In this document: positions 48,009-61,298 of the stretch, piece by piece | Layout: the number at the start of each line of letters is the position of its first letter | How positions within the stretch are numbered: the stretch's first letter is position 1 | DNA from: Acidobacteriota bacterium | Lineage (GTDB): Bacteria > Acidobacteriota > Thermoanaerobaculia > UBA5066 | Direction: 5' to 3' | NCBI GenBank assembly: GCA_016716715.1 | Contig: JADJVE010000019.1 | Coordinates: 27,083-91,082 of the forward strand | Length of the DNA stretch: 64,000 nt | Notes under the pieces: generated by a model | Told to the model about the DNA's origin: nothing | Databases searched by the model: none | The model's input: only the letters and a program-made list of their open reading frames with translations | Translations under genes and position numbers: made by a program

Positions 48009-51000
48009 ATGAAAAACGCCCGACGAATCGCCCTCTTCGCCGCCGCCGCGCTCTTCGCCGCCGGGTCCGCCCGGATGGCGCTCACCTTCGCCGGGGCCCG
48101 CGTCACGGGCCCGGCCACGTGGAAGGACGTGGACCGGCTCGTCTCCGAGCAGAAATTCGAGGAGGCGGCCGCCGCGGCCGGGAAGATTCGCGAGGCGGCG
48201 CGCGCCGCGGGCGACGAGACGGACGAGGCGAAGGCCCTCGTCCGCGAGGTCCAGCTCCGGACCGCGCTTCACGGCTACGAGACTTCGGTCCGGTTCCTGA
48301 AGGACCAGCCGTGGCCGAAGGGCCTCCTGCAGAGGACGACGCTGCGCCTCTTCTACGCGCAGTCCCTCGTGACGTACGCCCAGGCCTACGGGTGGGAGAT
48401 CGGCAAGCGCGAGAAGGTTTCCTCGACTGGCGCCGTCGACCTCAAGGCGTGGACGCGGGACGAGATCCAGGCCGAGGCCGTGCGGGCGTACGTCGAGGTC
48501 TGGAAGGACCGCGAGGCGCTCGGGCGCGTGCCGGTGAACGCCGTCGCCGACTTCGTCGAGCCGAACAACTACCCGAAGGAGATCCGCGGCACGCTGCGCG
48601 ACGCCGCGTCGTACCTCTTCGCGGCCCTCCTCGCCGACACGTCCGGCTGGCGGCCCGAGCAGTCGAACGGCGTCTTCTCGCTCGACGCGAGGCTCCTGAT
48701 CGCCGGTGACGCCGGGGTGTCGAGGCTCGTGAAGCTCGACGACCCTGCCGTCCACCCGCTCCTGAAGCTCGGCGCCGTCCTCGACGACCTCGAGGCCTGG
48801 CACGCGCGCGCGGGCGAGAAGGAGGCCGCGCTCGAGGCGCGCCTCGAGCGCCTGCGCCAGCTGGACGCGGCGCTGACGGACGCGGGAGATCGCGCCGCCA
48901 TCCGGAAGGACCTCGCCTCGAAGCTCCCGGCGTACGCGGCCGTCCCCTGGTTCTCGATGGGAAAGGCCCAGCTCGCCGACTTCACGCGCGCCGAGGAAAA
49001 GCCCGGCAACCTCGTCAGGGCGCGGGCGCTCGCGCTCGAGGCGATCGCCGCCTGGCCGAAGTCGCTCGGGGCCGACCGCGCCCGCTCGATCGTCGGGCAG
49101 ATCGAGGCGCCCGACTGGTCGATGGCCGCGATGGCGGCGGACGGTCCGGGGAGGCGCTCGATCGAAGTCACGCACCGGAACCTCCCGGTCCTCTTCTTCC
49201 GCGCCTACGCGGTCGACCTCGAGGCCCGGATCGGCCGGGCGAAGGACTACAACCTCATGCCGCAGGGTCCGGAGGTCGACGCGCTCGTCGCGAGGGAAAA
49301 GCCGGTCGCGTCCTTCGAGTCGGCGCTTCCCGCCACGACCGACTTCAAATCGCATCGCACGTTCGTGACGCCGCCGGCCCTCGGGCGCGGCCTGCACGTC
49401 GTCGTCGCATCGGCCGATCCCGGGTTCGCGCCCGACAAGGGTCCGCTCCGCGCGGTCGGGATGATCGAGACGGACCTCGTCCTCACGGTTCGCCAGACGG
49501 ACACGAACGCCGTCGAGGCGCGGGTGTTGACGGGAACGACCGGCCGCCCCGCGGCCGGGGCGACGGTGTCGCTGTACCTCTACGACTGGCAGAAGGGGCA
49601 TCGCCGCATCGCCGAGGCCACGGCCGGGAGGGAGGGGCTCGCCGTCTTCGAGCCGACTCCCGAGCGCAGCGGCAAGCCGCTCTTCCTCTTCGCGAGGCGC
49701 GGCGAGGACGTCGCGCTGGATGCCGCGTCCTTCTCGATGTGGGCGCGCGGGCAGTCCGGCGAGACGTCCTCCGCGCTCGTTTACACCGACCGGAGCATCT
49801 ACCGGCCGCTCCAGAAAGTGCTCTGGAAGGCGATCCTCTACCGCGGCCGTCCCGACCAGGCGCGTTTCCAGGTGGCGCCGGCGTCGACCGTCTCGATCAC
49901 TCTCGTCGACGCGAACGGGCAGGCCGTCGAGTCGAAGGCCGTCACGACGAACGCCTACGGCTCCGCGGCCGGGGAGTTCGCGCTCCCGGCCGGGCGCGCG
50001 CTCGGCGCGTGGAGCGTGCGCTGCGACTGGGGCGGCGCCGCTTCGATCCGCGTCGAGGAGTACAAGCGGCCGACGTTCGAGGCGACGCTCGAGGAAGCGA
50101 AGGACGCTCTGCGCCTGAACAGGCCCGCGACGTTCCGGGGGGAGGCGCGCTACTACTTCGGCCTTCCCGTCGCGAGCGGAAACGTCGCCTGGCGCGTCAC
50201 GCGCGAGACAGAGTACCCGTGGTGGTGGTGGTGGGGATGGATGGGGCGCGGGCGCTCCGCCGGCGCGGAGACCGTCGCGACGGGCAACGCCGCGCTTGGC
50301 GCGGACGGAAGGTTCGCGGTCACGTTCACCCCGAAGGCGGACGAACGGCAGTCGAAGGAAATCACGTACCGCTACCGCGTCTCGGCGGACGTCACGGACG
50401 AGGGCGGCGAAACGCGCTCGGCCGACCGCTCCTTCCGCCTCGGGTTCGTGAGCGTGAAAGCGAGAGTGGAGAGAGAGAAGAATTTCTTCTTAGAAAGTAA
50501 GAAGGGAGAAGGCGCAGCGAAGATCGTCAGGACCGATCTCGATGGAGCGCCGCGTCCGGGCAAGGGGACCTGGCGGCTGCTGCGGCTCGTGTCGCCCGAG
50601 AAGCCGGTCCTCCCGGCCGAATTACCTTCAAAGAAATCCGAAAACGCCGTTGCACTTGGCGAGAAGGCCGCAGCAGGCGGCGTGTCGACCCCCGGCGACC
50701 TGCTTCGCCCCCGCTGGGCGACGTCGTACTCCGTCGACGAATGGCTGCACTCCTGGAAGGACGGGGCCGAACAGTCCTCCGGCGACCTGACGCACGACGC
50801 GAAGGGCGAGGCGAAGGTCGACCTGCCCGCCTTGTCCGAAGGCGCCTACCGCCTGCGCTACTCGACCGTCGACGACTTCGGTGCGAAGTACGAGACGGCG
50901 CAGGACTTCCTCGTCGCCGGCGGAAAGTCCGCCCCGGCGCTGCCCGTCGTCCTCCTCGCCGAGTCGTCCTCGGTGAGGGTCGGCGGCGTCGCTCGCTTCC

Positions 51001-54000
51001 TCGTTGCATCCGGCCTTCGCGATCAGACGCTCTTCCTCGATGTCGCGCGCGCTGGAAGGCTGATCGAGCGCCGCATCCTCAAGGCCGGGAGCGACGCCGT
51101 GCTCATCGAAAGGGCGATCACGGAGGAGGACCGCGGCGGGCTCGGTGTGACGCTGACCGCCGTGCGCGATCACCAGTTTCTCCAGCAGACGCAGAGCGTT
51201 TTCGTGCCGTGGGAAGACCGGGAGCTGAAGGTCTCCTTCGCCACCTTCCGCGACCGCCTGCGCCCCGGCCAGACCGAGACGTGGCGCGTAACGGTGAAGG
51301 GCGCGACGCCCGCGCACCCGCTCAAGGAGACGGCCGAGCTCCTCGCCTACATGTACGACCGGAGCCTCGACTCCTTCGTCCCGCACCGGCCCGTGAGCCC
51401 GCTCGCGCTCCTGCCGAATCGCGCGACGCCGCTCGTGGTCCGCGCGACGCTCGGTCCGGCGCCCCAGCTCTGGCTCACGAGCAGCGGCTTCCCGTCGCCT
51501 CCGTCCGGCCCGTACCTCGTCGGAGACCGGCTCAAGTTCGAGAGCGGCTACGGAATCGGCGGCCCTGGCGTGAGGAGCCGCGGGATGGGCGGCGCCTACA
51601 ACCAGGTGAGACCCGCCTCGGCGCCGATGGCGATGAAGTCGGCCATGGCGAGGGAGGAGGGGGCGGCCAACGCGGTCGCCGAAGGCAAGCTCGCCGATTC
51701 GAAGAACGGGCGAGACGAGGAGGTCGATTCACTTTCGAAGAAGAAGGACGGCGATAAGGCGCGCGCGGACGCTGCAGGCGAAGGCACGGGTCTTCGCAGC
51801 AACTTCTCCGAAACCGCTTTCTGGCAGCCGCAGCTCCTGACGGGGCCGGACGGCTCGGCGTCCATCGAATTCACCGTGCCGGACTCCGTCACGTCGTGGA
51901 AGGTCTTCGTCCACGCGGTCACGAAGGACCTGCGCGGCGGGTCCGTGGACGCCGAGACGAAGACCGTCAAGGACCTCATGGTCCGGCCGTACGTCCCGCG
52001 CTTCCTGCGCGAAGGCGACAAGGCGGAGATCAAGGTCGTCGTGAACAACGCGTCGGGGAAACCGCTGAGCGGCACGCTGGCGTTCGAGATCACGGATCCG
52101 GCGACGGGGAAGAGCCTCCTCGCGGCATTCGGGCTCGAAGGTGGCGCGTCGAAGGCATTCACGGCGCCCGCGGGCGGCGGGACGAACCTGACGTTCCCCG
52201 TGACGGCGCCGAAGGGACTGACGACCGTCGCCTTCAAGGCGGTCGCGACGGCGGGCGACCTGTCGGACGGCGAGGTCCGCCCGGTGCCGGTGCTGCCCGG
52301 CCGGATGCACCTCGTCCAGTCGCGCTTCGTCACGCTCAAGAACAAGGACAAGAAGACGCTGCGCTTCGACGACCTCGCGAAAAACGACGATCCGAGCCTC
52401 GTCAACGAGCAGATGGTCGTCACCGTGGACGCGCAGCTCTTCTACACGGTCCTCCAGGCGCTGCCGTACCTCGTGAACTACCCGTACGAGTGCACGGAGC
52501 AGACGCTGAACCGCTTCCTCTCGACGGGCATCGTCTCGAGCGTTTACAAGGACTACCCGGCCGTCGCGAAGATGGCCGCGGAGATGTCGAAGCGGACGAC
52601 GCCTCTCGAGTCCTGGGACGCGGCCGATCCAAATCGAAAAATGGCTCTTGAAGAGACGCCGTGGCTCGTGACGGCAAAGGGCGGCCGCACCGACCTCGAC
52701 ACGATCAACGTCCTCGACCCGCGCGTCGCGCAGGCGAACCGGGAGTCGTCACTCGCGCGGCTGAGGAAGGCGCAGACCTCGATCGGAGCGTTCCCGTGGT
52801 TCCCGGGCGGCCCGCCGTCGCCTTACATGACCCTCTACATCCTCCACGGCTTCGCGAAGGCGCTCGAGTTCGGGGTGGACGTTCCGAAGGACGTGACACA
52901 GCGCGCGTGGGGCTACGTCGCGCAGCACTACCGGAGCGAATGGCGTGCCTGCATGGCGGACAACCGCTGCTGGGAGTACATCACTCTCCTGAACTACGTC
53001 CTGTCGACGTACCCGGACGTCTCGTGGAGCGGCGGCGCCTTCACGGACGCCGAGCGCAAGGAGATGCTCGACTTCTCGTTCAAGCACTGGAGGCACCACG
53101 CCCCGTACCTCAAGGGCTATCTCTCGCTGACGCTCAAGCGCATGGGCCGACCGGCGGATGCGAAGCTCGTGTGGGACTCGGTCATGGACTCGGCGAAGTC
53201 GAACGAGGAGCAGGGGACGTTCTGGGCGCCCGAGGACCGGTCGTGGCTCTGGTACAACGACACGATCGAGACCCACGCGTTTGCACTGCGGACGGTCCTC
53301 GAGCTGGACCCTACGAGCGCGAAGAAGGACGGCCTCGTCCAGTGGCTGCTCATCAACAAGAAGCTCAACCAGTGGAAGTCCACGCGCGCGACGGCCGAGG
53401 TCATCTACTCGCTCGTCCACTACCTGAAGAAGGAAGGCGCGCTCGGCGTCCCCGAGGACGCGACCGTGACCGTCGGCGTCCAGAAGGTGACGTTCGCGTT
53501 CGACCCCGAGAAGTACACGGGGAAAAACAATCGGATCGTGATCCCCGGCGAGAAGGTCGACCCCAAGACCACGTCCACCGTCGTCGTCGAGAAGGAAGGC
53601 AAGGGCTTCGTCTTCGCCTCGGCCGCCTGGCACTTCTCGACGGAGAAGCTTCCCGCCGAGGACCGCGGAGACTTTTTTCAGGTCTCGCGGAAGTTCTTCC
53701 GGCGGGAGAACACGGGGAAGGAGTTCACGCTGACTCCGCTCGCCGAGGGCGCCGTCATCCGGCCCGGCGACCAGATCGAGGTGCAGATCTCGCTGCGGAC
53801 GAAGCACGACGCCGAGTACGTTCACCTGCGCGACCCGCGGGCGGCCGGCCTCGAGCCCGAGAACGTCCTTTCGAAGTGGAAGTGGGACCTCGGGATCGCG
53901 TGGTACGAGGAGACTCGCGACTCGGCGACGAACTTCTTCTTCGAGCGCCTGCCCGTCGGCGAGTACACGTTCAAGTACCGCCTGCGCGCGAACATGGCCG

Positions 54001-54107
54001 GAACGTTCCGGGTCGGGCCCGCGACGGTCCAGTCCATGTACGCGCCCGAATTCAACGCCTACTCGGCGGGCACGGTCCTCAAGGTGGCGGGAGGATCGCC
54101 TCCATGA
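48009..54107 (+). CDS. alpha-2-macroglobulin family protein (bacterial A2M, thioester-containing)
   Basis: 2032 aa. Signal peptide. MG domains. Thioester motif YPYECTEQ at about 52490. Carries several AT-rich repeat copies (50469-50511, 50624-50648, 51722-51748). Confidence 0.9.
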   Translation: MKNARRIALFAAAALFAAGSARMALTFAGARVTGPATWKDVDRLVSEQKFEEAAAAAGKIREAARAAGDETDEAKALVREVQLRTALHGYETSVRFLKDQPWPKGLLQRTTLRLFYAQSLVTYAQAYGWEIGKREKVSSTGAVDLKAWTRDEIQAEAVRAYVEVWKDREALGRVPVNAVADFVEPNNYPKEIRGTLRDAASYLFAALLADTSGWRPEQSNGVFSLDARLLIAGDAGVSRLVKLDDPAVHPLLKLGAVLDDLEAWHARAGEKEAALEARLERLRQLDAALTDAGDRAAIRKDLASKLPAYAAVPWFSMGKAQLADFTRAEEKPGNLVRARALALEAIAAWPKSLGADRARSIVGQIEAPDWSMAAMAADGPGRRSIEVTHRNLPVLFFRAYAVDLEARIGRAKDYNLMPQGPEVDALVAREKPVASFESALPATTDFKSHRTFVTPPALGRGLHVVVASADPGFAPDKGPLRAVGMIETDLVLTVRQTDTNAVEARVLTGTTGRPAAGATVSLYLYDWQKGHRRIAEATAGREGLAVFEPTPERSGKPLFLFARRGEDVALDAASFSMWARGQSGETSSALVYTDRSIYRPLQKVLWKAILYRGRPDQARFQVAPASTVSITLVDANGQAVESKAVTTNAYGSAAGEFALPAGRALGAWSVRCDWGGAASIRVEEYKRPTFEATLEEAKDALRLNRPATFRGEARYYFGLPVASGNVAWRVTRETEYPWWWWWGWMGRGRSAGAETVATGNAALGADGRFAVTFTPKADERQSKEITYRYRVSADVTDEGGETRSADRSFRLGFVSVKARVEREKNFFLESKKGEGAAKIVRTDLDGAPRPGKGTWRLLRLVSPEKPVLPAELPSKKSENAVALGEKAAAGGVSTPGDLLRPRWATSYSVDEWLHSWKDGAEQSSGDLTHDAKGEAKVDLPALSEGAYRLRYSTVDDFGAKYETAQDFLVAGGKSAPALPVVLLAESSSVRVGGVARFLVASGLRDQTLFLDVARAGRLIERRILKAGSDAVLIERAITEEDRGGLGVTLTAVRDHQFLQQTQSVFVPWEDRELKVSFATFRDRLRPGQTETWRVTVKGATPAHPLKETAELLAYMYDRSLDSFVPHRPVSPLALLPNRATPLVVRATLGPAPQLWLTSSGFPSPPSGPYLVGDRLKFESGYGIGGPGVRSRGMGGAYNQVRPASAPMAMKSAMAREEGAANAVAEGKLADSKNGRDEEVDSLSKKKDGDKARADAAGEGTGLRSNFSETAFWQPQLLTGPDGSASIEFTVPDSVTSWKVFVHAVTKDLRGGSVDAETKTVKDLMVRPYVPRFLREGDKAEIKVVVNNASGKPLSGTLAFEITDPATGKSLLAAFGLEGGASKAFTAPAGGGTNLTFPVTAPKGLTTVAFKAVATAGDLSDGEVRPVPVLPGRMHLVQSRFVTLKNKDKKTLRFDDLAKNDDPSLVNEQMVVTVDAQLFYTVLQALPYLVNYPYECTEQTLNRFLSTGIVSSVYKDYPAVAKMAAEMSKRTTPLESWDAADPNRKMALEETPWLVTAKGGRTDLDTINVLDPRVAQANRESSLARLRKAQTSIGAFPWFPGGPPSPYMTLYILHGFAKALEFGVDVPKDVTQRAWGYVAQHYRSEWRACMADNRCWEYITLLNYVLSTYPDVSWSGGAFTDAERKEMLDFSFKHWRHHAPYLKGYLSLTLKRMGRPADAKLVWDSVMDSAKSNEEQGTFWAPEDRSWLWYNDTIETHAFALRTVLELDPTSAKKDGLVQWLLINKKLNQWKSTRATAEVIYSLVHYLKKEGALGVPEDATVTVGVQKVTFAFDPEKYTGKNNRIVIPGEKVDPKTTSTVVVEKEGKGFVFASAAWHFSTEKLPAEDRGDFFQVSRKFFRRENTGKEFTLTPLAEGAVIRPGDQIEVQISLRTKHDAEYVHLRDPRAAGLEPENVLSKWKWDLGIAWYEETRDSATNFFFERLPVGEYTFKYRLRANMAGTFRVGPATVQSMYAPEFNAYSAGTVLKVAGGSPP
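50469..50511 (-). repeat. AT-rich mini-repeat copy (reverse orientation) inside the A2M gene
   Basis: GAGAGAGAAGAATTTCTTCTTAGAAAGTAAGAAGGGAGAAGG. Confidence 0.45.
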
Positions 54108-54564
54108 ACCGGGTGCCCTCGATGGGGTGGTCGTTGTACGGAGGGATGTCCGTGAAGCCCAGCGAAAGGTATAGAGCCTGGGCGGCCGTCATCGAAGGCA
54201 GAGTATCGAGGCGGACGGCGCGATAGCCGATCGCGCGGGCCTCGGCCATCAGGGCCTCGACGAGCCGCCGGCCGAGGCCCGTCCCGCGAAAGGCGGGCTT
54301 CACCCAGAGCCTCTTCATTTCGCAGATCTCTTTTCCGATGTTCCTCAGAGCGATGCAGCCTGCCGGTTCGTCGCCCGCGAACGCGAGCAGGAGCCGGCCA
54401 TCCGGAGGCGCGTACGCGCCCGGCAGGCCCGCCAGCTCCTCGTCGAAGTTCTGGAAGCAGAGCGAGAACCCGAGCGACTTCTGGTACTCCTCGAAGAGAG
54501 CGCGCGCCGTTGCGACGTCGGCTGCGCCGTCAGCGATTCTGATGAGAGTGGGCACGGTGTTCAT
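54079..54564 (-). CDS. GNAT family N-acetyltransferase
   Basis: Start MNTVPTLIRIADG. ...GCIALRN...LWVKPAFRGTGLGRRLVEAL is a GNAT acetyl-CoA binding motif. Confidence 0.75.
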   Translation of the reverse strand: MNTVPTLIRIADGAADVATARALFEEYQKSLGFSLCFQNFDEELAGLPGAYAPPDGRLLLAFAGDEPAGCIALRNIGKEICEMKRLWVKPAFRGTGLGRRLVEALMAEARAIGYRAVRLDTLPSMTAAQALYLSLGFTDIPPYNDHPIEGTRFMEAILPPP

Positions 54565-54751
54565 CTCTTTTCCTCTCGAAGCTCTGCACGGCCAGCGCAA
54601 GACCGTCCCGGTCGATCGCCTCGAGGGCGTCGATCTCGGCTGCAGCAAGGCCCGCGGCGGCGGCGCGGCCGCGCGGATCCGCGAGGAAGAGCGCACGCTC
54701 GGCCTCGTTCGTGTAGAGGCGGGCAAGGTAGCCCTCGAAGCCGGGGCTCAC
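54530..54751 (-). CDS. small protein (73 aa) translationally coupled to DUF692, a possible minimal MNIO partner (RRE/DUF2063-N-like) or precursor
   Basis: GTG start overlaps the DUF692 stop (GTGA). MSPGFEGYLARLYTNEAERALFLADPRGRAAAAGLAAAEIDALEAID is a helical, leader-like sequence. Overlaps the GNAT start by 35 nt. Confidence 0.4.
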   Translation of the reverse strand: MSPGFEGYLARLYTNEAERALFLADPRGRAAAAGLAAAEIDALEAIDRDGLALAVQSFERKRDEHRAHSHQNR

Positions 54752-55617
54752 GCGGCGGCCTCCGCTCGGCGAGCCCGGCCCTTTGCGAGTGAGGTTCTCG
54801 CTCGGGCGAGCTCGTCGAGGATTTCTTTGAAAGGGGGAAAGGCTCCGTCGCGCTCGAGGATCACCGTGAGTGGCTGCGGCGCCAGCTCGCCGACCCTCTC
54901 GAGGAGATCGAAGACCGCGTCGGGGGTCGCGTGGAGGTGATCGTCGAGGATCCTGCTCACACCCGCCCTGCCCGGCACCCCGATGCGCCGCCCGCCAGCG
55001 AGATGAACGGCCCTCACCCGGTTGCTCGGGACCACTCGAAGAAATCTCTCTTCCTCTTCCTCTCCTCCGAACCCAAAGTTCTTCGCGTTCGCGTGGAGGT
55101 TGTGCAGGTCGAGGAGGAGATCCGTGTCGCAGGCCTCGAGGACCTCCGCGACGAACGTTGCTTCGTCGCGGTCGCTGCCGGGCGGGTCGATCAGCGTCGC
55201 GACGTTCTCGAGGAGCGGCGCGCTGCCGACGACGGCGCGGGCGCGCGCGACGTTGCGCCCCGTCCCCTCGATCGTGGCCGCGCAGCGCGGCGGGGCCGCG
55301 AGGTGGCCGATCTCGATTCCGCCGCCGCGCACGAACGCGAGGTGCTCCGACCAGAACACGGGCTGTGCGAGGTCGAAAACGCGCGCGAACGCGTCGAGGC
55401 GCCTCGGGTCGACGGGCGCCGAGGAGGCGAGGCCGAGCGACACGCCGTGAAGGACGACCGGCACGTACGCGCCGAGCGTCCGGAGGGCGCGGACCTCGCG
55501 CGCCGGGCTCTTCATCCAGTCTTCGGCGATCACCTCGACGACGTCCAGCCGGTCCGCCGCCGCGAGGATGCGGTCGGCGATCGCGGGCCGCCAGCCGAGC
55601 CCGACGCGGTCCTTCAC
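54748..55617 (-). CDS. DUF692 family multinuclear non-heme iron oxidase (MNIO, MbnB/TglH-like)
   Basis: TIM-barrel xylose-isomerase-like motifs: GLGWRPAI, WSEHLAF, LLENVATL, LLLDLHNLHANAKNFGF, and VHLAGG. Confidence 0.8.
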   Translation of the reverse strand: MKDRVGLGWRPAIADRILAAADRLDVVEVIAEDWMKSPAREVRALRTLGAYVPVVLHGVSLGLASSAPVDPRRLDAFARVFDLAQPVFWSEHLAFVRGGGIEIGHLAAPPRCAATIEGTGRNVARARAVVGSAPLLENVATLIDPPGSDRDEATFVAEVLEACDTDLLLDLHNLHANAKNFGFGGEEEEERFLRVVPSNRVRAVHLAGGRRIGVPGRAGVSRILDDHLHATPDAVFDLLERVGELAPQPLTVILERDGAFPPFKEILDELARARTSLAKGRARRAEAAA

Positions 55618-55618
55618 G

Positions 55619-56485
55619 TCAGCCCCCGCACCCGCCGCAGCCGCCGCCGCACCCGCCGCCTCCGCACGACGAGCCGCACGAGGATCCGCAGGACGAGCCT
55701 GAGATGCCGCCGTCCGAAGACGAGGCCTTCGGGTACAGCTTCTTCAGGTACCCGAAGTCGCCCGCCGGGAGGAGACCGACGCCGAACACCGCGGCGAGGA
55801 GTGCGACCTCGGCGCTCGCGGCGTGCGCACGAAGGGACGGCGCGCGGTGCCGGAGGCCGGAGAAGAGCGTCCTCAGGTCCGCGACGAGGCGGTCGCCCCT
55901 CGCCGTTCGGCGGGGGAAGGCGGCGACGACGAGCGCGAAGGCCGCGAGGAGCGACAGGATGATCAGAAAACCGACGTTTCGCCGCCCGCGCGAGATCGCC
56001 TGCGCCCAGCGCACGCCGGAGACTCCCCAGAGAACGACGAGCCCGACGACGAACGCGCGGATCCGGGCCGCGTTCTCTCCGGGGCCCGGCAGGAGGCGGA
56101 GGTCCTCGAGGGAGGTCCGGATCGGCTCGGTGGCCGCGCCGAGCGCGCGGTCCGTGAACACCGAGGCCGCCTCGCCGAAGGAGCGGAACTTCTCGAGCAG
56201 AGCCGTCTCGAGCGGATTCTTCGCCCGCGCGTCCTTTTTCGTCTGCAACGTCGTGCCGTCGGGGACGAGGAGGCCGCGGTCGACGAGCGTGACGCTCGCG
56301 ACGCGGAGGGCTTCGTTCGGGCCGCCCCGAAGGTACGCGATCAGGTACGGGTCCGTGAGCGAGACGTGTGCGGGCCCCTCATCCTCGGAGCTCTTCCTCA
56401 GGTGCGCGACGACGAAGACAGTCGCTGCCGCGAGTGCGGCGTAGAACAGCAGGAACTGCGGGCCGGCGAGGTCGAACGGGTTCAT
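55619..56485 (-). CDS. TIGR04222-like membrane protein with a Cys/Gly-rich C-terminal tail (candidate MNIO substrate)
   Basis: Start MNPFDLAGPQFLLFYAALAAATVFV. 3-4 TM segments. C-terminus ...[41 protein letters not shown]. Confidence 0.6.
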   Translation of the reverse strand: MNPFDLAGPQFLLFYAALAAATVFVVAHLRKSSEDEGPAHVSLTDPYLIAYLRGGPNEALRVASVTLVDRGLLVPDGTTLQTKKDARAKNPLETALLEKFRSFGEAASVFTDRALGAATEPIRTSLEDLRLLPGPGENAARIRAFVVGLVVLWGVSGVRWAQAISRGRRNVGFLIILSLLAAFALVVAAFPRRTARGDRLVADLRTLFSGLRHRAPSLRAHAASAEVALLAAVFGVGLLPAGDFGYLKKLYPKASSSDGGISGSSCGSSCGSSCGGGGCGGGCGGCGG

Positions 56486-57204
56486 GGCATCCGCCGGGCG
56501 CGCTCGCGCAGAAGAGCGGCGAGCGCCGGGAGCCGGGAGAGGATGCGCGCCGCCTCGCCCGGGGCGAGGGGGCGCCGCTCGCGCACGGCGGAGAGGCTCT
56601 CGACGAGCGCGGGCCATCCGTCGCCGGGCAGGGCGGAGGCAACCTGGCGCAATGCCTCTTTCGGCGAGGGAACGGGTTGGCCTTCGAGCGACAGGAGAGA
56701 CGCGGCGGCGGCGCGGAGCGGGCCCGTGAAGTTCGCGACCGAGCGCCCGGCCTCGTCGTCGCTCCCGCCGTGCAGAGCCCAGGCTTCGCGGAGGCGCAGC
56801 ACGAGGTTCAGGAGCGACTGCGAAAGGCGCCGGCGCAACGCATCCTCCGGGATTCTCAGAGCCGCAAAGGGGTCGCTGCCGAAGAGGACGCGGCGGCGCC
56901 GCGCGATGTCCGCGAACTTGACCGCGAAGGCTTCGGCGGCCTCGGCGATCTCACTCTCCAGGAGAAACATGACCTCGAGCCGGGCCGCCGCCTGCGCGAG
57001 ACGCAAGGCGCCGCGCATGTCCTCGACGCCTTTCTCCGGAAGCGCCTTCAGGACGAGCACCAGGTTGACGTCCGATTCGGGCCGGAGCGCTCCCTCCGCC
57101 GCGCTGCCGAAGAGGACGGCCGAGGACAGATCGCCGCCGAGGCTCGTGCGGGCGGCAGCGAGAAACGCGTCGAGGGCGCGGGCGGTCGGCTCGGGCAGTT
57201 CCAT
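56482..57204 (-). CDS. nucleotidyltransferase (polymerase-beta-like / ANT-like) domain protein
   Basis: Start MELPEPTARALDAFL. AVLFGSAAEGALRPESDVNLVLVL is the GS...D.D NTase motif. Its stop overlaps the downstream start (ATGA). Confidence 0.65.
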   Translation of the reverse strand: MELPEPTARALDAFLAAARTSLGGDLSSAVLFGSAAEGALRPESDVNLVLVLKALPEKGVEDMRGALRLAQAAARLEVMFLLESEIAEAAEAFAVKFADIARRRRVLFGSDPFAALRIPEDALRRRLSQSLLNLVLRLREAWALHGGSDDEAGRSVANFTGPLRAAAASLLSLEGQPVPSPKEALRQVASALPGDGWPALVESLSAVRERRPLAPGEAARILSRLPALAALLRERARRMP

Positions 57205-57227
57205 GGCGAGATCCTCGTTTTGCCGTG

Positions 57228-59240
57228 TTAAGACGATGTGGAGGTGCGCGAGCGCGCCTTGGCGAGCAGCCGCTCCCGGAAGAGGCCCGGCGGGATCTGG
57301 CCCTCGGACAGGAACTCCTCGTGGAAGCGCTTCTCCGAGAAGCCCGGTCCCTCGATCCGGCGGCACTCCTCGCGCAGCGCGAGGATTTCGGCTTTCCCGA
57401 GGTAGTACGTGATGGCCTGCGTCGGCCACTTGGAGTACCGGAAGGCGGCCTTCTTCATCCCGTCCACGGCGGCGCGCTCGGAGGCGCTCGGGTTCGCCTT
57501 CGGGTCGGTCGAGACGGGGCCCTGCACGAAGCGCACGTTTCGCGCGAGGTACGTCACGGCTTCGTCGAACGTCATGAAGCCGCAGTGAAGACCCGTGTCC
57601 ACCACGACGCGCGCGTCGCGCAGGAGCTGGTTCTGGAGCTGGATGAGGCGCTCCTCGGGCGTGTAGAAGCCTTCCGGGAAGCCGTCGCGCGGCTCGCCGA
57701 TCAGCTGCTCGGTGTAGAGGGCCCAGCCCTCGGAGGACAGCGCGTCCTCCCACATCGACGCGGAATCCTCGACACCGCCGGGCAGCAGCCAGCGGATCAC
57801 GGGAATCGACGCCGAGCGCGCGCGCGTGAACTGGTAGTACCAGTCGTGGCCGGGGAAACCCTCGTGGGCGGCCGTGGACGCGATCGCGGGCCGGTTGTGG
57901 TCGCGCAGCGCGGCGAGGTCGTTCCCCGTCGGCGTGACGTAGAACTGCCCGACGCCGCCCTTCTTGAACTGGGGCGCCGGGTAGTACGCGGCGTCGATCG
58001 AGTCGCGCAGGGGCGGCGGCGTGAAGAGGACGTCCAGCCGGTAGTCGGCCGGCAGGTCGAACATGCCCGTCTTCCGCCCGTACGCCACGAGGCGCTGGCA
58101 CGTGTCCCGGTAGGACGCGAGCATCTCCGCGTCGGTCTTCGGGATCTCGTCCTCCAGCTTCGAAACGACGGCGGGCAGGGACGGGTCGGACCAGCCGCGC
58201 GAGATCGCGATGCGGCGCGCGAGAGCCGTCATCTCGGCGAGGGTCGCGGCGACGGCGGTCTTGCCGCGCGCGTGCAGCTCGCGCGGCGTCGCGGAGATTC
58301 CCAGGTTGTTCTTCAGCGCCCAGGTGTATTCGATCTCGCCGGCCGCGTAGCGATCGCGGTCGAAGGCGGGCTTCAGCGTCTTGCCGTCGGGCTGGATGTA
58401 GAGGTCGACGAGGCCCTTTCGGAAGTCGCGAAAGGCGGCGCCGGCGGCTGCGGACGCCGAGAGGAGAGCCGCGCGGCCCGCGTCGTCGAGGGCGGAGCCG
58501 GCTTCTTTCGCGCGCTCCGGGAGCGTCTTCTCGAAGTAGGCAGCCGTCGACGCGGCCGCCTCGACCGACACGGCGATGAGGCGCCGGTCGGGGATCGCGT
58601 CGCCGGAGGCGCCGCGCCGGACGTTCGCGAGAGCCACTTTCAGGTACGCGGGCACGGCGGCGGTGCGAGAGGCGATCGCGGCCCACTCCGCTTTCGTTCC
58701 GCGCGCGGAGCCCGCGCCCGGCTCCATTCCCTGGAGCGTCCACTCGATCCCGCGCAGCGGCTCCTCGAGGAAGACGTCGAGCGCCTTCTCGTGGATCCGG
58801 CGTTCGAGGTTGTGGATCAGGAAGGCGAGCTGGGACTTCATCACGGCCGCGTCGATGCGGTCGGATTCCGGGAGCTTCTTCCGGTCGATCTTCGCGAGGC
58901 GCGCTTCGAAACCGCGAAACTCGTCGCGCTCGGCGAGGAGCGCGGCGGGGGAGTAGTCGCGCAGCTTTCCGTCCAGCGCGGCGTAGGCCGGGTCGAGTCC
59001 GGAGGCGCCGAGGTACGTCGCGACGACGGGAAAGCGGCTCAGGAATGCACGGACGTAATCCTCTTCGAGCGCCGCGAAGACCGAGGCTTTTTGCTTCGGA
59101 GATTTCGGAGAAGAAGAGGAGGGGGATTTCTGCGAATGCGCGGGCAGGGCCAGCGCGGCGAGTAACGCCAGGGCCGCGACGGTTGCCGGGTGCGCGACGC
59201 GGGTGAATGCGGGGATCCGCCCTCTTACCCTTCTAAGCAA
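57228..59240 (-). CDS. DUF885 family protein (secreted, peptidase-like)
   Basis: TTG start supplied by a repeat copy (MLRRVRGRIPAFTRVAHPATVAALALLAALALPAHS signal peptide), with GGGAGG upstream. HEGFPGHDWYYQ and other DUF885 motifs. Confidence 0.65.
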   Translation of the reverse strand: MLRRVRGRIPAFTRVAHPATVAALALLAALALPAHSQKSPSSSSPKSPKQKASVFAALEEDYVRAFLSRFPVVATYLGASGLDPAYAALDGKLRDYSPAALLAERDEFRGFEARLAKIDRKKLPESDRIDAAVMKSQLAFLIHNLERRIHEKALDVFLEEPLRGIEWTLQGMEPGAGSARGTKAEWAAIASRTAAVPAYLKVALANVRRGASGDAIPDRRLIAVSVEAAASTAAYFEKTLPERAKEAGSALDDAGRAALLSASAAAGAAFRDFRKGLVDLYIQPDGKTLKPAFDRDRYAAGEIEYTWALKNNLGISATPRELHARGKTAVAATLAEMTALARRIAISRGWSDPSLPAVVSKLEDEIPKTDAEMLASYRDTCQRLVAYGRKTGMFDLPADYRLDVLFTPPPLRDSIDAAYYPAPQFKKGGVGQFYVTPTGNDLAALRDHNRPAIASTAAHEGFPGHDWYYQFTRARSASIPVIRWLLPGGVEDSASMWEDALSSEGWALYTEQLIGEPRDGFPEGFYTPEERLIQLQNQLLRDARVVVDTGLHCGFMTFDEAVTYLARNVRFVQGPVSTDPKANPSASERAAVDGMKKAAFRYSKWPTQAITYYLGKAEILALREECRRIEGPGFSEKRFHEEFLSEGQIPPGLFRERLLAKARSRTSTSS

Positions 59241-59250
59241 TTTCCAGAAC
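59219..59250 (+). repeat. AT-rich mini-repeat copy forming the 5' end (TTG start) of the DUF885 gene
   Basis: GCCCTCTTACCCTTCTAAGCAATTTCCAGAAC. Confidence 0.45.
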
Positions 59251-59269
59251 CTCCCGTCCTGTCTCTGCG

Positions 59270-60307
59270 CTAGTTGGAACGGGGATTCTCTCTCAACCGC
59301 CCGAGGAAGAATGCCAGCCCAACGGCCCCCGCCGCGAGCGTCGTGAGCAGGTGCAGGAGGCCGCCGAGGACGGCGCCTGTCGCGAGCGGCAGCCCGTCCA
59401 GCGCCGCGGCCGCCGCGAAGCCGGATTCGTACGGGCCGAACGTGCCCGCGGGCGACGGGATCACCGCGGCCGTCGTGATGGACGCGAGGAGCGCGACGGC
59501 AAGCGTCGCGGGGTGGAGGGGCAGGCCGAGGCCCTTCGCGGTCACGAAGAGCGCGGCGAGATGGAGCGCGAGGAATGCGATCGCGGCGAGCGCCGCCCCG
59601 AGGTAACGGTTGGGGGCGCGCCGCGCCACGGCGAGGCCCTCGAGGATCTCCTCGGCGATCGCGCGCCGCTTTCCGCCCTCCGGCAGGCGCGGGGCGAGCC
59701 ACGCGACGAGGCGGCCGGAGACGGCGGGCAGAACGAGAAGAAGTCCGGCCCCGCCGACACACACCGCAGCGGCCGCGGCGCCGAGGACGGGCGTGCCACG
59801 CGCGACGAGCAGCCACGCCGCGCCCGCGACACCCGTGAGGAGGAGCGTCGCCGTGTCGAGGAGCTTCACGAGGGCGAAGACCGCCGCCGATCGCGCCCAC
59901 GTGGTCCCGAGGACGGAGCGCAGCGCGGCCCATGTCCCGACCTCGCCGGTCCGGAAGGGCATCACCTGCAGGAGAAAAGTCGTCGCCCCCGACACGGACC
60001 ACGCGCGGCCGAACGGCACCTCAGCGCCGCGCGGCAGCAGCAGGTTCAGCCGCAGCGCGCGGGGGGCGAAGGCGAGGACGTTGAGCAGGAACCCGAGCGC
60101 GACGAGCCACGGGTTCGCGGAAGAGAGTCGGGAGAAAAGGTCTGCTGAAGAGCGCGTGAACGCCACGGCGGCCAGCACGAGCAGCGCCGTCAAGAGAAGG
60201 AGAGAAAAGAGTTTCTTAGAAAGGGTAAGAGGGGCGGAGCCGGGGCGCGGCCCCTCCGCGCCCGGTTGCGGCGGCGCGTGTCCCGCGGCGGGCATCCGTA
60301 CATTCAC
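59270..60307 (-). CDS. flippase-like (UPF0104 / lysyl-PG-synthase TM region) membrane protein
   Basis: 345 aa, about 8 TM segments. Alternative start at ATG 60295 (MPAAG...), 9 nt downstream of an AAGGTG contributed by a repeat copy. Confidence 0.6.
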   Translation of the reverse strand: MNVRMPAAGHAPPQPGAEGPRPGSAPLTLSKKLFSLLLLTALLVLAAVAFTRSSADLFSRLSSANPWLVALGFLLNVLAFAPRALRLNLLLPRGAEVPFGRAWSVSGATTFLLQVMPFRTGEVGTWAALRSVLGTTWARSAAVFALVKLLDTATLLLTGVAGAAWLLVARGTPVLGAAAAAVCVGGAGLLLVLPAVSGRLVAWLAPRLPEGGKRRAIAEEILEGLAVARRAPNRYLGAALAAIAFLALHLAALFVTAKGLGLPLHPATLAVALLASITTAAVIPSPAGTFGPYESGFAAAAALDGLPLATGAVLGGLLHLLTTLAAGAVGLAFFLGRLRENPRSN

Positions 60308-60340
60308 CTTCTAAGAAATCCGAATCCGAAATCCGAAATA
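60298..60340 (+). repeat. AT-rich mini-repeat copy followed by a 3x tandem heptamer (CCGAAAT / GGATTTC), in the 5' leader of the flippase-like gene
   Basis: CGTACATTCACCTTCTAAGAAATCCGAATCCGAAATCCGAAATA. A further reverse-orientation copy lies at 60183-60228. Confidence 0.5.
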
Positions 60341-60341
60341 T

Positions 60342-61298
60342 TCATCCCCTGTCCCCCTCGCCTGTATTCCGCTTTCTCTTCTCCACGACGAGCTCCTCGA
60401 GGAGCGCGCGGTTGATGGAGATGAGGTCGGCGAGGAGGCCCGACAGGAAGCACACGACCGCGGCGACGAAGAGCACGGCCGCGAGGAGGAGCGACTGGAT
60501 GTGGCCCGCGGGGTTCTGGGCCGTTGCGACGAACCACGCGTACCGTCCGACGAGCGCGAGCCCGGCGAGGCCGAGCAGGGCCGCAAATCCGAAGAAGACC
60601 GGCAGTGGCTTGTAGAGCGCCGTGATCCGGAGGATGTTCGCGCCCTGCACGAGGACGTAGTTCGACGTCCGCCGGATCAGGCGCGACGGCCGCACGGGGG
60701 CGTTCGTCCGGACGGGGACGGACGCGACGGCCATCTCCTTGTTGCCCGCCTGGATGAGCGTCTCGATCGTGTACGTCATCCGCGAAAAGACGTTCAGATG
60801 CATCGCGGCCTCGCGCGTGAGCGCGCGGAACCCGGACGTCGCGTCGGGCACGTCGGTGCCGGAGACCCGCCGGACCACCCATGAGCCGAGCCGCTGAGTC
60901 AGACGCTTGCCGGGCGAGAAGTCCGGCTTCGTCGCGACGCCGCGGTCGCCGACCACGATCTCGGCCTCGCCTCTCAGGATCGGGGCGACGAGGGCCGCGA
61001 CGTCCGCCGCGGCGTACTGGCGGTCGGCGTCCGTCGAGACGATTACGTCCGCTCCGGCGCGGAGAGAGGCGTCCAGGCCGGCCCGCCACGCGAAGGCGAG
61101 GCCGCGGTGGATCGGGAGGCGCACCACGTGGTCGGCTCCCGCCCTCCGCGCGGCCTCCGCGGTGCCGTCGGTCGACCCGTCGTCCACGACGAGCGTCTCG
61201 ACGGCGTCGAATCCCTCGAGCCGCTTTGGCAGCTCCGCGAGGGCGGCGGCGATCTGCTCCGCCTCGTCCCAGGCCGGGATCTGGATGACGAGCTTCAT
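60342..61298 (-). CDS. family 2 glycosyltransferase (polyprenol-phosphate glycosyltransferase-like)
   Basis: MKLVIQIPAWDEAEQI..., VVDDGSTDGT, STDADRQY, and a C-terminal TM helix. Confidence 0.85.
   Translation of the reverse strand: MKLVIQIPAWDEAEQIAAALAELPKRLEGFDAVETLVVDDGSTDGTAEAARRAGADHVVRLPIHRGLAFAWRAGLDASLRAGADVIVSTDADRQYAAADVAALVAPILRGEAEIVVGDRGVATKPDFSPGKRLTQRLGSWVVRRVSGTDVPDATSGFRALTREAAMHLNVFSRMTYTIETLIQAGNKEMAVASVPVRTNAPVRPSRLIRRTSNYVLVQGANILRITALYKPLPVFFGFAALLGLAGLALVGRYAWFVATAQNPAGHIQSLLLAAVLFVAAVVCFLSGLLADLISINRALLEELVVEKRKRNTGEGDRG

Follow-up and report, generated by a model that had tools for sequence, protein, structure and literature searches.

A conserved gene cassette with a Cys-Gly-tailed TIGR04222 membrane protein as putative substrate of an MNIO enzyme

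Introduction

In the captophorin systems of bufferins, oxazolin and fontiphorin (BufABC, HvfABC and FonABC), a BufB/HvfB-like MNIO (DUF692) enzyme and a DUF2063+RRE partner (PME1), encoded right after it, serve a small secreted substrate peptide that has a Sec signal peptide and repeated multi-Cys motifs with Cys-Gly dyads. HvfBC acts on six Cys of HvfA, which become copper-binding groups (PMC11252979), and FonBC, the one 5-thiooxazole-forming MNIO tested, prefers Cys-Gly dyads and does not accept Cys followed by a charged residue (PMC12668002). In the methanobactin system (MbnABC), the MNIO and its partner MbnC likewise convert Cys to copper-binding heterocycle/thioamide groups (PMC11252979), with a short leader-core peptide as substrate and a secreted product. 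Closest to the locus analysed here are the TIGR04222-MNIO clusters of Antoine et al. (Microb Genom 2025; PMC12452194), in which a TIGR04222 gene, an MNIO gene directly after it and then a small 'PME-type 2' gene occur without a DUF2063 gene. On bioinformatics only, that study proposed the Cys-rich C-terminal segment of TIGR04222 proteins as putative MNIO substrate, the same hypothesis that we reached independently.

Our locus lies in a window of 64,000 nucleotides from the Acidobacteriota contig JADJVE010000019.1 and is one of those clusters: Table S3 of PMC12452194 lists from it MBK9065026.1 as TIGR04222, MBK9065025 as TIGR04222-associated MNIO and MBK9065024 as 'PME-type 2'. A preliminary description had suggested a membrane-tethered RiPP-like or tail-modification system not recognised as characterised; it is thus already catalogued, although still experimentally uncharacterised. 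As in BufABC, HvfABC and FonABC, the MNIO is BufB/HvfB-like, the candidate substrate carries repeated multi-Cys motifs with Cys-Gly dyads, the partner gene comes right after the MNIO gene, and a multi-site copper-binding product would be expected. Here, however, a polytopic membrane protein of ~290 aa would supply the substrate in the form of its tail, a LigA/NHLP-like domain of 60 aa takes the partner's place, a nucleotidyltransferase (NTase) is added, the cassette lacks DoxX and sigma/anti-sigma genes, and the MNIO scores below the equivalog cut-offs. MbnB is a distant relative of this MNIO (27.6 bits), and the membrane-protein tail is unlike the short peptide of MbnABC.

Results

Five tightly packed minus-strand genes occupy positions 54079-57204 of the window, as first described. 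They encode, in order of transcription, an AadA-like two-domain NTase homologue (56482..57204, 240 aa), a polytopic TIGR04222 membrane protein (55619..56485, 288 aa), an MNIO (54748..55617, 289 aa), a four-helix protein of 73 aa (54530..54751) and a GNAT acetyltransferase (54079..54564, 161 aa). Start and stop codons had been taken to overlap throughout, which is so at three junctions: NTase/TIGR04222 (ATGA, 4 nt), MNIO/73-aa (GTGA, 4 nt, the coupling already noted) and 73-aa/GNAT (35 nt, the GNAT start lying inside the 3' end of the 73-aa gene). The TIGR04222 and MNIO genes are instead separated by a 1-nt spacer (TGA-c-GTG).

Four of the families (NTase, TIGR04222, MNIO and a helical protein of ~60 aa) recur in the same order across 118 loci from Acidobacteriota, Alpha-, Beta- and Gammaproteobacteria, Verrucomicrobia and soil metagenomes, though the NTase is not in every one. 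These loci comprise 35 anchored on the small protein, 3 on the NTase and 80, from metagenomes, on TIGR04222 using a query with the tail removed. In the 35 small-protein-anchored genome loci these four families alone are conserved, with strand and order kept and unrelated flanks, and the cassette is seen in all three NTase-anchored loci. The TIGR04222 gene stands directly upstream of the MNIO gene in the small-protein- and TIGR04222-anchored loci. Co-occurrence of TIGR04222 with DUF692 across genomes, on which the preliminary reading depended, proved strong: of the 73 TIGR04222-anchored loci that could be evaluated, 69 have an MNIO (95% adjacency) and four lack one. Among evaluable loci of that metagenome set, the small partner is found in 45 of 49 (fused in 4) and the NTase, upstream of TIGR04222, in 64 of 76; 23 small-protein-anchored loci also have the NTase there, which bears out its proposed place in the system. 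With the same gene order amid unrelated flanks in 35, 3 and 80 loci, the arrangement is far beyond chance. MNIO, TIGR04222 protein and partner are the invariant core and the NTase a dispensable member. Copper or metal genes are not consistently found in the neighbourhood; this, like the four loci without an MNIO, counts against the tail-modification reading proposed below.

The GNAT (Acetyltransf_1, E 1e-18 in Pfam), initially counted as a component, lies outside this conserved module: it is retained in close Thermoanaerobaculia relatives (L001-L008) and absent from all 118 loci beyond them. The locus is therefore one copy of a self-contained cassette with a lineage-specific GNAT appended.

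The membrane protein scores 109 bits against the NCBIfam TIGR04222 model (cut-off 43). Hydropathy and charge profiles of 31 homologues give a layout of TM1, a soluble domain of ~110 aa with a DPYxIAxLRGG motif, TM2, TM3, a basic linker, a weak hydrophobic helix (AAVFG) and a Ser/Gly/Cys tail. As read from the sequence, the tail has 34 residues with six Cys-Gly dyads (55622..55723, minus strand) and is the proposed modification site. In 81 homologous tails we find a mean of 6.1 Cys with a modal spacing of 4, Cys-Gly accounting for 445 of 494 Cys (90%), and a composition of G 34%, S 27% and C 14% with K/R nearly nil. The operon contains neither a further Cys-rich ORF nor space for a hidden precursor, and a canonical small precursor is not conserved across the 35 small-protein-anchored loci, so that the tail stands, as first supposed, as the only Cys-rich candidate substrate. 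Its earlier placement in the cytoplasm was an assumption rather than an observation: the side depends on whether the weak fourth hydrophobic helix spans the membrane, and whereas PMC12452194 predicts a periplasmic tail, our charge analysis is compatible with either side. If the tail were exported co-translationally, it would have to be explained how a cytoplasmic enzyme reaches it.

The MNIO matches PF05114 (E 7e-60, Pfam) and by sequence is closest to the BufB/HvfB type, though under the curated NCBIfam cut-offs (164 bits of 310 for BufB, 134 of 360 for HvfB). Its best PDB sequence match is 3bww (E 1.8e-19), a member of the MNIO-PME1 group, with which the motifs HG, SEHL, EN, LDxxN, HxAG, DxH and LERD align. 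From the gene content, order and coupling, the conservation, the folds and the tail composition we infer an enzyme-substrate relation, its chemistry and a metal function, and think it somewhat probable that the MNIO turns the Cys-Gly tail of the TIGR04222 protein into a membrane-anchored metal-binding structure. The tail may instead undergo other chemistry, such as Cys beta-carbon excision (TglH-like), cross-links or macrocycles (ChrH-like), or Ser/Gly modification with Ser O-nucleotidylylation, catalysed by the MNIO, possibly with the NTase, and yielding no thiooxazole metallophore. Scores so far below the BufB and HvfB cut-offs mean that the enzyme may catalyse a different reaction; the conserved AadA-like NTase is an extra enzyme-like component not found in characterised MNIO pathways, and we count the tails as being as Ser-rich as they are Cys-rich. 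Yet the nearest MNIO relatives are those named above, the Cys-Gly dyads match the substrate preference of FonBC, and the core reaction does not require the NTase (see below), all of which makes this alternative rather unlikely.

A functional link might also exist with no enzyme-protein substrate relation, the unmodified tail binding metal or an Fe-S cluster or sensing redox while a small molecule, or a peptide whose gene lies elsewhere, serves as the MNIO's substrate. Unmodified HvfA binds 2-3 Cu(I) ions too (PMC11252979), tail modification here is something that we infer, and many TIGR04222 genes come without an MNIO: about one third of genomes with TIGR04222 genes have none, and over a quarter of TIGR04222 proteins have no C-proximal Cys (PMC12452194). 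We nevertheless regard this as distinctly unlikely given the 95% adjacency, the tightly packed frames and the lack of any other conserved candidate substrate in the 118 loci; moreover, every characterised MNIO described in the cited literature (including PMC12452194 and PMC11252979) acts on a peptide or protein of its own cluster.

The 73-aa ORF is a genuine gene: 19 close homologues conserve residues 1-62, and a library of 1.84 billion proteins contains 649 cluster representatives of the family at E<=1e-3, so that its conservation, earlier left to be checked, is established. Of 35 loci, 24 show a 4-nt overlap of MNIO stop and partner start and 9 one of ~20 nt, the other two being anomalous; in several genomes the two proteins are fused (P0133 and others; L096, L118, L123, L125). 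PMC12452194 groups the small protein with DUF2063-like proteins, whereas our sequence and fold searches detect no DUF2063 similarity and assign it to the LigA/NHLP (RiPP leader-like) clan, with family profile matches to NF038399 (97/98), Frankia_peptide (63/98), TIGR04509 (64/98) and Nif11/NHLP. The operon has no DUF2063 gene either. Of the three proteins first proposed to replace DUF2063, the 73-aa protein is conserved, translationally coupled to the MNIO and in the partner position, the NTase is a frequent component, and the GNAT lies outside the conserved module. The best structural match is SonA, a borosin precursor, a likeness that goes no further than the clan (E about 1e-3, 19% identity); in split SonA-SonM and fused OphMA, however, the enzyme is an N-methyltransferase rather than an MNIO. 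Leader-clan membership, the match to a precursor and the enzyme-precursor fusions of borosins such as OphA would suit a small protein that is itself a RiPP precursor, with a leader domain and a basic C-tail core, and a TIGR04222 protein serving as exporter, immunity protein or anchor. We consider this very unlikely. Unlike SonA, the small protein lacks a conserved core peptide: the region past its domain varies from 0 to 82 aa without a conserved residue and is Arg-rich (R 21%, W 4.2%, net charge +6), with Cys in only 22 of 144 tails and TM segments in three, and the fusions keep 2-4 residues after the domain (P0133 ...KRGRVA, L118 ...KRAR), which leaves no core. Nor does the TIGR04222 protein bear a transporter or peptidase signature, and the conserved Cys-Gly tail would go unexplained.

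The NTase reaches Polbeta (22 bits) and NTP_transf_2 (19.6 bits) in Pfam, both under cut-offs, with weak MntA/ANT matches in NCBIfam. Its AF2 model (pLDDT 94.7) matches AadA, ANT(9) and ANT(3'')(9) in Foldseek (E 1.5e-7, TMq 0.54-0.67), with which it shares an N-terminal Pol-beta-type domain and a helical one at the C-terminus. Its GS and SD motifs line up with theirs (GS...SD-V-N, SDvN with AadA SDID), and G33, S34, D45, N47 and E85 are invariant in 58 sequences. Unlike those enzymes, to which identity is 15-18%, the NTase has an invariant Asn at the second catalytic Asp of DxD, reaches no curated ANT model, and sits in a putative protein-modification cassette, not a resistance element. The DxN makes catalytic competence doubtful and, with the NTase missing from ~16% of cassettes, indicates that the core reaction does not depend on it. 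A nucleotide-signalling or anti-phage module of NTase and membrane protein (Hailong-like, an NTase with a membrane effector) with the MNIO as accessory, hinted at by a Foldseek match to Hailong HalB (E 1e-6) and weak PADLOC NTase-domain matches to candidate systems PDC-S09 and PDC-M05A, is extremely improbable, because HalB fits worse than AadA (TMq 0.44 against 0.6-0.67), PADLOC matches none of the other four proteins, and the NTase is dispensable beside the invariant core and has DxN for DxD.

Discussion

Earlier work has already published the TIGR04222-MNIO link; to it the present analysis adds the conserved NTase, a leader-like partner fold and the fusions. PMC12452194 mentions no nucleotidyltransferase, NHLP/LigA or acetyltransferase, and does not list MBK9065027. 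As TIGR04222 proteins often occur without an MNIO or without C-proximal Cys, the membrane protein has a function of its own, which weighs against the scheme favoured here. In our favoured scheme, a cytoplasmic MNIO would dock with the LigA/NHLP-like protein of ~60 residues, the proposed stand-in for the DUF2063-RRE partner of bufferin and oxazolin systems, and the basic, Trp-rich amphipathic C-tail or TM helix of many partner homologues could hold the enzyme at the membrane beside its substrate. The AadA-like NTase, a frequent third component, probably binds nucleotide and may be a docking or regulatory subunit, or may nucleotidylate the tail. The MNIO would oxidise the Cys-Gly dyads to heterocycles of 5-thiooxazole type (or to groups of oxazolone/thioamide type), and the product would be a membrane-anchored, multi-site tail for binding soft metals (copper), a tethered counterpart of the secreted bufferins/captophorins.

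Organization and surroundings of the operon

Five tightly packed minus-strand genes lie at 57204–54079 in the window, as the preliminary description had stated and as we confirmed from the sequence: a nucleotidyltransferase (NTase)-like protein of 240 aa, with only weak Polbeta/NTP_transf_2, MntA and ANT matches; a TIGR04222 membrane protein of 288 aa, whose true start is at 56485; an MNIO (DUF692) of 289 aa; a 73-aa ORF (54530–54751), the candidate MNIO partner; and, as the last gene, a GNAT of 161 aa. The overlapping start and stop codons reported earlier hold at the NTase/TIGR04222 (ATGA, read from the sequence), MNIO/73-aa (GTGA) and 73-aa/GNAT (35-nt overlap) junctions, but not at TIGR04222/MNIO, where a 1-nt spacer separates the two codons (TGA-c-GTG). 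The encoded proteins match a Thermoanaerobaculia/Acidobacteriota MAG (locus tags IPL89_17865–17880), and the DNA containing the operon has a G+C content of 65–74%. A promoter and terminator scan of 53800–60400 found nothing exceeding shuffled expectation.

Convergent with the operon, a plus-strand gene (48009–54107) encodes a 2032-aa bacterial alpha-2-macroglobulin-like protein with MG2, A2M and bMG10 domains, its 3′ end overlapping that of the GNAT gene by 29 nt (54079–54107); a convergent alpha-2-macroglobulin-like gene also lies downstream in one close relative (L005). Just upstream of it in the window is a SNF2/RapA-like helicase gene (45503–47992, plus strand; SNF2-rel_dom, Helicase_C and RapA_C domains). 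On the other side, and on the same strand as the operon, are genes for a DUF885 protein (57228–~59250), whose stop codon lies 24 nt ahead of the NTase gene, an LPG_synthase_TM-family membrane protein (59270–60307) and a family-2 glycosyltransferase (60342–61298). The DUF885 gene also adjoins the cassette, upstream, in a second close relative (L007), whose contig is long enough to show it, and none of the three recurs beside the cassette in other phyla. Long plus-strand ORFs (up to 529 aa) that run antisense over the operon (54870–57412) and look ‘conserved’ across loci were discarded as shadow ORFs, which are typical for 70% G+C DNA, as were the minus-strand ORF families in loci L009–L043.

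A four-gene cassette is conserved, and GNAT is not part of it

Close Thermoanaerobaculia relatives, with small proteins 64–85% identical to that of the window, keep the order NTase-TIGR04222-MNIO-small protein-GNAT. We sampled conservation beyond these using three independent anchors: the small protein, the NTase and the TIGR04222 protein. For the first we used a pattern built from a 17-member subset of the 98-member family, the full alignment having no sufficiently conserved stretch, and it retrieved 35 species genomes from Acidobacteriota, Bryobacterales, Burkholderiales including Janthinobacterium, Azospirillum, Reyranellaceae, Verrucomicrobiae, a deltaproteobacterium and Methylococcaceae. 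Searches with the window proteins and all-versus-all clustering of ORFs revealed only four conserved families in these 35 loci, on a single strand and in a single order: NTase in 23, TIGR04222 in 30, MNIO in 34 and the small protein in at least 32; other recurrent ‘families’ proved to be antisense shadow ORFs. With the NTase anchor, all three homologues examined (~50% identity, on long contigs) fell within the same four-gene unit amid unrelated flanks. The TIGR04222 anchor, a query with its tail removed for which the best 80 metagenome loci were kept, bore out the expected co-occurrence of TIGR04222 and DUF692, with an MNIO gene following in 69 of 73 evaluable loci; the small protein was a separate downstream gene in 41 of 49 and fused to the MNIO C-terminus in four more, and an NTase gene preceded TIGR04222 in 64 of 76.

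GNAT was absent from every locus retrieved with the three anchors (0/35, 0/3 and 0/80), and was seen only in the close relatives L001–L008. The core is thus a four-gene cassette, of which the NTase is the most dispensable member, and GNAT, earlier taken as part of the system, is a lineage-specific neighbour. That it acetylates the product was considered and dropped, as the gene is restricted to a single lineage.

Some loci depart from this layout. Cassettes lacking the NTase (L021, L025, L026, L032, L038 and L042; L073, L093, L112, L115–L117, L119, L122 and L124) concentrate in certain Acidobacteriota/Bryobacterales lineages. SSDGG repeats are more abundant in some of their tails, and NTase presence and tail composition possibly covary. 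In a Bryobacteraceae genome (L037, 3301–5159), two TIGR04222 genes in tandem, each encoding a Cys-Gly tail, precede one MNIO and small-protein pair. In two metagenome loci (L094, 1025–3104; L111, 3495–5565), the genes for the NTase and a Cys-tailed TIGR04222 protein occur without MNIO or small protein, a ~467-aa ORF overlapping or following instead; these loci could be decayed or alternative versions of the cassette. In low-GC DNA at L098 (3501–6125), a TIGR04222-like N-terminus is part of an 874-aa ORF without Cys tail or MNIO, which would be either a different family architecture or an assembly artefact.

The TIGR04222 protein bears a Cys-Gly-rich tail

The window protein matches the TIGR04222 model at 109.1 bits (curated cut-off 43), over positions 3–228 of 229, and behind this domain its low-complexity C-terminus is a Ser/Gly/Cys tail that can be read directly in the sequence ([25 protein letters not shown]). 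All 80 closest TIGR04222 relatives from metagenomes are likewise Cys-rich. The 81 homologous tails analysed have a median of 43 residues and contain 34% Gly, 27% Ser and 14% Cys, with a mean of 6.1 Cys per tail at a modal Cys-Cys spacing of 4. Gly or Ser directly precedes 98% of the 494 Cys and Gly directly follows 445, which resembles the substrate preference of FonBC, a reconstituted 5-thiooxazole-forming MNIO that favours a Cys-Gly dyad and leaves Cys unprocessed where the next residue is charged (PMC12668002). In HvfA, six Cys are turned by HvfBC into copper-binding groups (PMC11252979), later reassigned as 5-thiooxazoles. Lys and Arg are nearly nil in the tails (0.09 per tail), and Asp and Glu occur in small number. 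Besides this tail, the cassette loci encode no conserved Cys-rich ORF, and the overlapping genes leave no space for one, which upholds the earlier statement that the tail is the only Cys-rich candidate substrate; no canonical small precursor is conserved in the cluster.

Averaged over 31 homologues, the protein has three clear transmembrane (TM) helices plus a fourth hydrophobic one that is weaker (~227–245, motif AAVFG), with conserved Lys/Arg grouped after TM1, before TM2 and after TM3; by the positive-inside rule, the soluble domain and the basic linker after TM3 are therefore predicted to be cytoplasmic. The tail itself, which this rule cannot place, would lie in the periplasm if helix 4 is membrane-spanning and in the cytoplasm otherwise. 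The Cys/Gly-rich tail on a membrane protein stands as described, but its cytoplasmic location was an assumption, and either side is compatible with the topology analysis: the scarcity of Lys and Arg fits export, whereas a tail that cytoplasmic enzymes can reach would be expected to stay in the cytoplasm or to be exported post-translationally. For the soluble domain (residues ~30–146), PDB and Pfam searches yielded nothing meaningful beyond isolated weak matches such as GPP34 at 0.011; we suspect from its sequence a winged-helix/RRE-like fold.

The MNIO is related to BufB and HvfB

The expected DUF692 assignment was borne out by PF05114 (E = 7e-60; 202.9 bits against a gathering score of 25, over positions 2–261 of 263). 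The motifs HG, SEHL, EN, LDxxN, HxAG, DxH and LERD align with those of 3bww, the best PDB sequence match, and, going by published MNIO structures, would supply the iron ligands. The closest curated families are BufB (NF050167, 164.3 bits versus a cut-off of 310) and HvfB (NF003818, 133.8 versus 360), both far from reached. Judged by this nearest kinship, the distance from the cut-offs and the aligned motifs, the enzyme represents a related but distinct clade within the Cys-modifying branch. It may make a thiooxazole. For a captophorin/bufferin-type product, with Cys turned into copper-binding 5-thiooxazole, the analysis covered the substrate motif, seen as the Cys-Gly dyads of the tail, and the relatedness of the enzyme to BufB and HvfB.

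The small protein is a leader-like candidate partner

The 73-aa ORF was found to be conserved, as the proposal in the preliminary description required: residues 1–62 are kept, and the C-terminus varies. A profile search of 1.84 billion representatives yielded 649 relatives, mainly stand-alone and of 67–110 aa. Several matches are fusions to the MNIO: P0133 is full length, with an MNIO part 63% identical to the window enzyme, and in P0035, P0022, P0122, P0039 and P0125, all of them fragments, the linkers measure 20–45 aa. When 98 members were scanned singly, 97 matched NF038399 (‘Os1348 family NHLP clan protein’), 83 Pfam LigA, 64 TIGR04509 and 63 Frankia_peptide, and the family profile matched an 85-aa nitrile-hydratase-alpha-like chain and SonA, the precursor of the split borosin SonA-SonM, at E ~1e-3. 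A Janthinobacterium homologue is named a LigA-domain protein in UniRef. Sequence and fold similarity thus consistently point to the LigA/NHLP clan. Membership in NF038399 itself was rejected, given scores under the curated cut-offs for the window protein (LigA, 15.2 versus 25.3; NF038399, 22.1 versus 40) and for ten further members against the 40-bit NF038399 threshold (nine at 25–36 bits, one without a match), and on these sequence scores the small proteins form an uncurated family. In addition, 66 of the 98 match NF038175, the N-terminal domain of mycobacterial IniB-type proteins. In those proteins a long Gly-rich low-complexity region follows this domain, and they would be a single-chain counterpart of the leader-like domain and Gly-rich tail that are here on two proteins.

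Neither the 73-aa protein nor any of the 98 members matched DUF2063 at E ≤ 1, and no DUF2063 gene occurs in the 118 loci, in line with the reported absence of the usual partner. A PME-type 1 partner (DUF2063 plus RRE, ~250 aa) was accordingly discarded, and no structural relation to NGO1945 (3dee) or TglI (8hi7) was found; being encoded directly after the MNIO gene and without a DUF2063 signature, the protein corresponds to PME-type 2.

The C-terminal tails of the small proteins (median 24 aa) are rich in Arg (21%) and contain 4.2% Trp, with a net charge of +6 and an amphipathic moment above shuffled controls in 71%; Cys is present in 22 of 144, three resemble TM segments, and in the MNIO fusions the tails are almost missing. 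That of the window protein is short and His-rich (DEHRAHSHQNR). Some homologues (P0063, P0104, P0142 and P0062) end in a genuine transmembrane segment in place of a basic, Trp-rich amphipathic tail. We read the small protein as a leader-like docking domain that partners the MNIO, often with a membrane-targeting tail, and not as a precursor.

The NTase has an AadA-like fold with an altered catalytic pair

The NTase belongs to a large family of at least 2,218 clusters. In an AF2 model (pLDDT 94.7), an NTase domain at the N-terminus is followed by a helical domain at the C-terminus, and Foldseek ranked AadA/ANT(9)/ANT(3″)(9) best (E = 1.5e-7, TMq 0.54–0.67), followed by Hailong HalB and ANT(4′). 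The two-domain ANT fold and the hG[GS] motif are both present, and G33, S34, R41, S44, D45, N47, E85 and several basic residues are invariant. The catalytic [DE]x[DE] pair was not found: the profile alignment places SDvN opposite SDID of AadA, so that the second catalytic Asp is always Asn (Asn47, invariant in 58 sequences). The protein probably still binds nucleotide, and may or may not transfer it.

Relation to earlier work and proposed function

A 2025 bioinformatic survey (Antoine et al., Microb Genom 2025; PMC12452194) had found, immediately preceding MNIO genes, the genes of over 1,000 Cys-containing proteins that have no signal peptide; 40% of these are TIGR04222 proteins, whose clusters lack DUF2063 genes and, in at least 10%, encode short ‘PME-type 2’ partners. 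It regarded the C-proximal Cys-rich segments as likely MNIO substrates, predicted to be periplasmic, and noted that a third of genomes with TIGR04222 genes have no MNIO. The window locus, with C-proximal Cys in a TIGR04222 protein beside an MNIO and no DUF2063, fits this class and is in its Table S3, as MBK9065026.1 (under TIGR04222), MBK9065025.1 (TIGR04222-associated and PME-type-2-associated MNIO) and MBK9065024.1 (the 73-aa protein, ‘PME-type 2’). The substrate hypothesis and this locus are hence already in that survey, and relative to characterised MNIO systems the cassette is a variant arrangement catalogued there bioinformatically. The window NTase (MBK9065027.1) is not among the Table S3 entries, and the survey makes no mention of nucleotidyltransferase, NHLP, LigA or acetyltransferase. 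It groups the 73-aa protein with DUF2063-like proteins, whereas we assign it to the LigA/NHLP clan and found no DUF2063 similarity. What the present analysis adds is the conserved NTase, the partner fold assignment, the naturally occurring fusions of enzyme and partner, and the removal of GNAT from the core. Our literature search found no experiments on such a system, nor an NTase or NHLP linked to MNIOs in such a context.

We favour, by a modest balance of probability, a model in which the LigA/NHLP-like partner docks the MNIO at the membrane, the MNIO oxidises Cys-Gly dyads of the TIGR04222 tail to thiooxazole-type ligands, and the product is a tethered metallophore-like protein; the NTase would play an accessory, nucleotide-binding part, and GNAT would have no connection with the core. 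A bolder reading, which we consider less likely than not, has the small protein as a RiPP leader split from its core, acting in trans and enzyme-fused in some genomes, that activates or positions the MNIO on a leaderless Cys-Gly membrane-protein tail, with the DxN AadA-like NTase as a nucleotide-dependent third subunit and a membrane-tethered thiooxazole metallophore as product. Some weight, though rather little, goes to a different chemistry on the same TIGR04222 tail. That enzyme and tail have no enzyme-substrate relation seems improbable, and slightly more so that the small protein is itself an NHLP-type RiPP precursor, since its tails are variable, basic, Cys-poor and almost gone in the fusions, leaving no conserved core peptide. 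A defence or signalling module is scarcely credible and was rejected after a PADLOC scan gave weak NTase-domain matches to candidate systems only, and nothing for the other four proteins.

Soil and freshwater Acidobacteriota and Proteobacteria commonly carry the cassette, which at ~2.7 kb is compact and so easily tested by co-expression. If the leader-in-trans reading is true, maturation of a genuine membrane protein would be shown for an MNIO for the first time, with a new partner class unrelated to DUF2063/RRE. The favoured model, if true, would provide a new minimal MNIO partner, a leader-like LigA/NHLP domain replacing DUF2063-RRE, and an example of substrate recognition without a leader peptide. 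If the tail is modified, MNIO chemistry would extend past small secreted peptides to the maturation of integral membrane proteins, and would furnish the cell with a fixed, multi-site metal-binding appendage.
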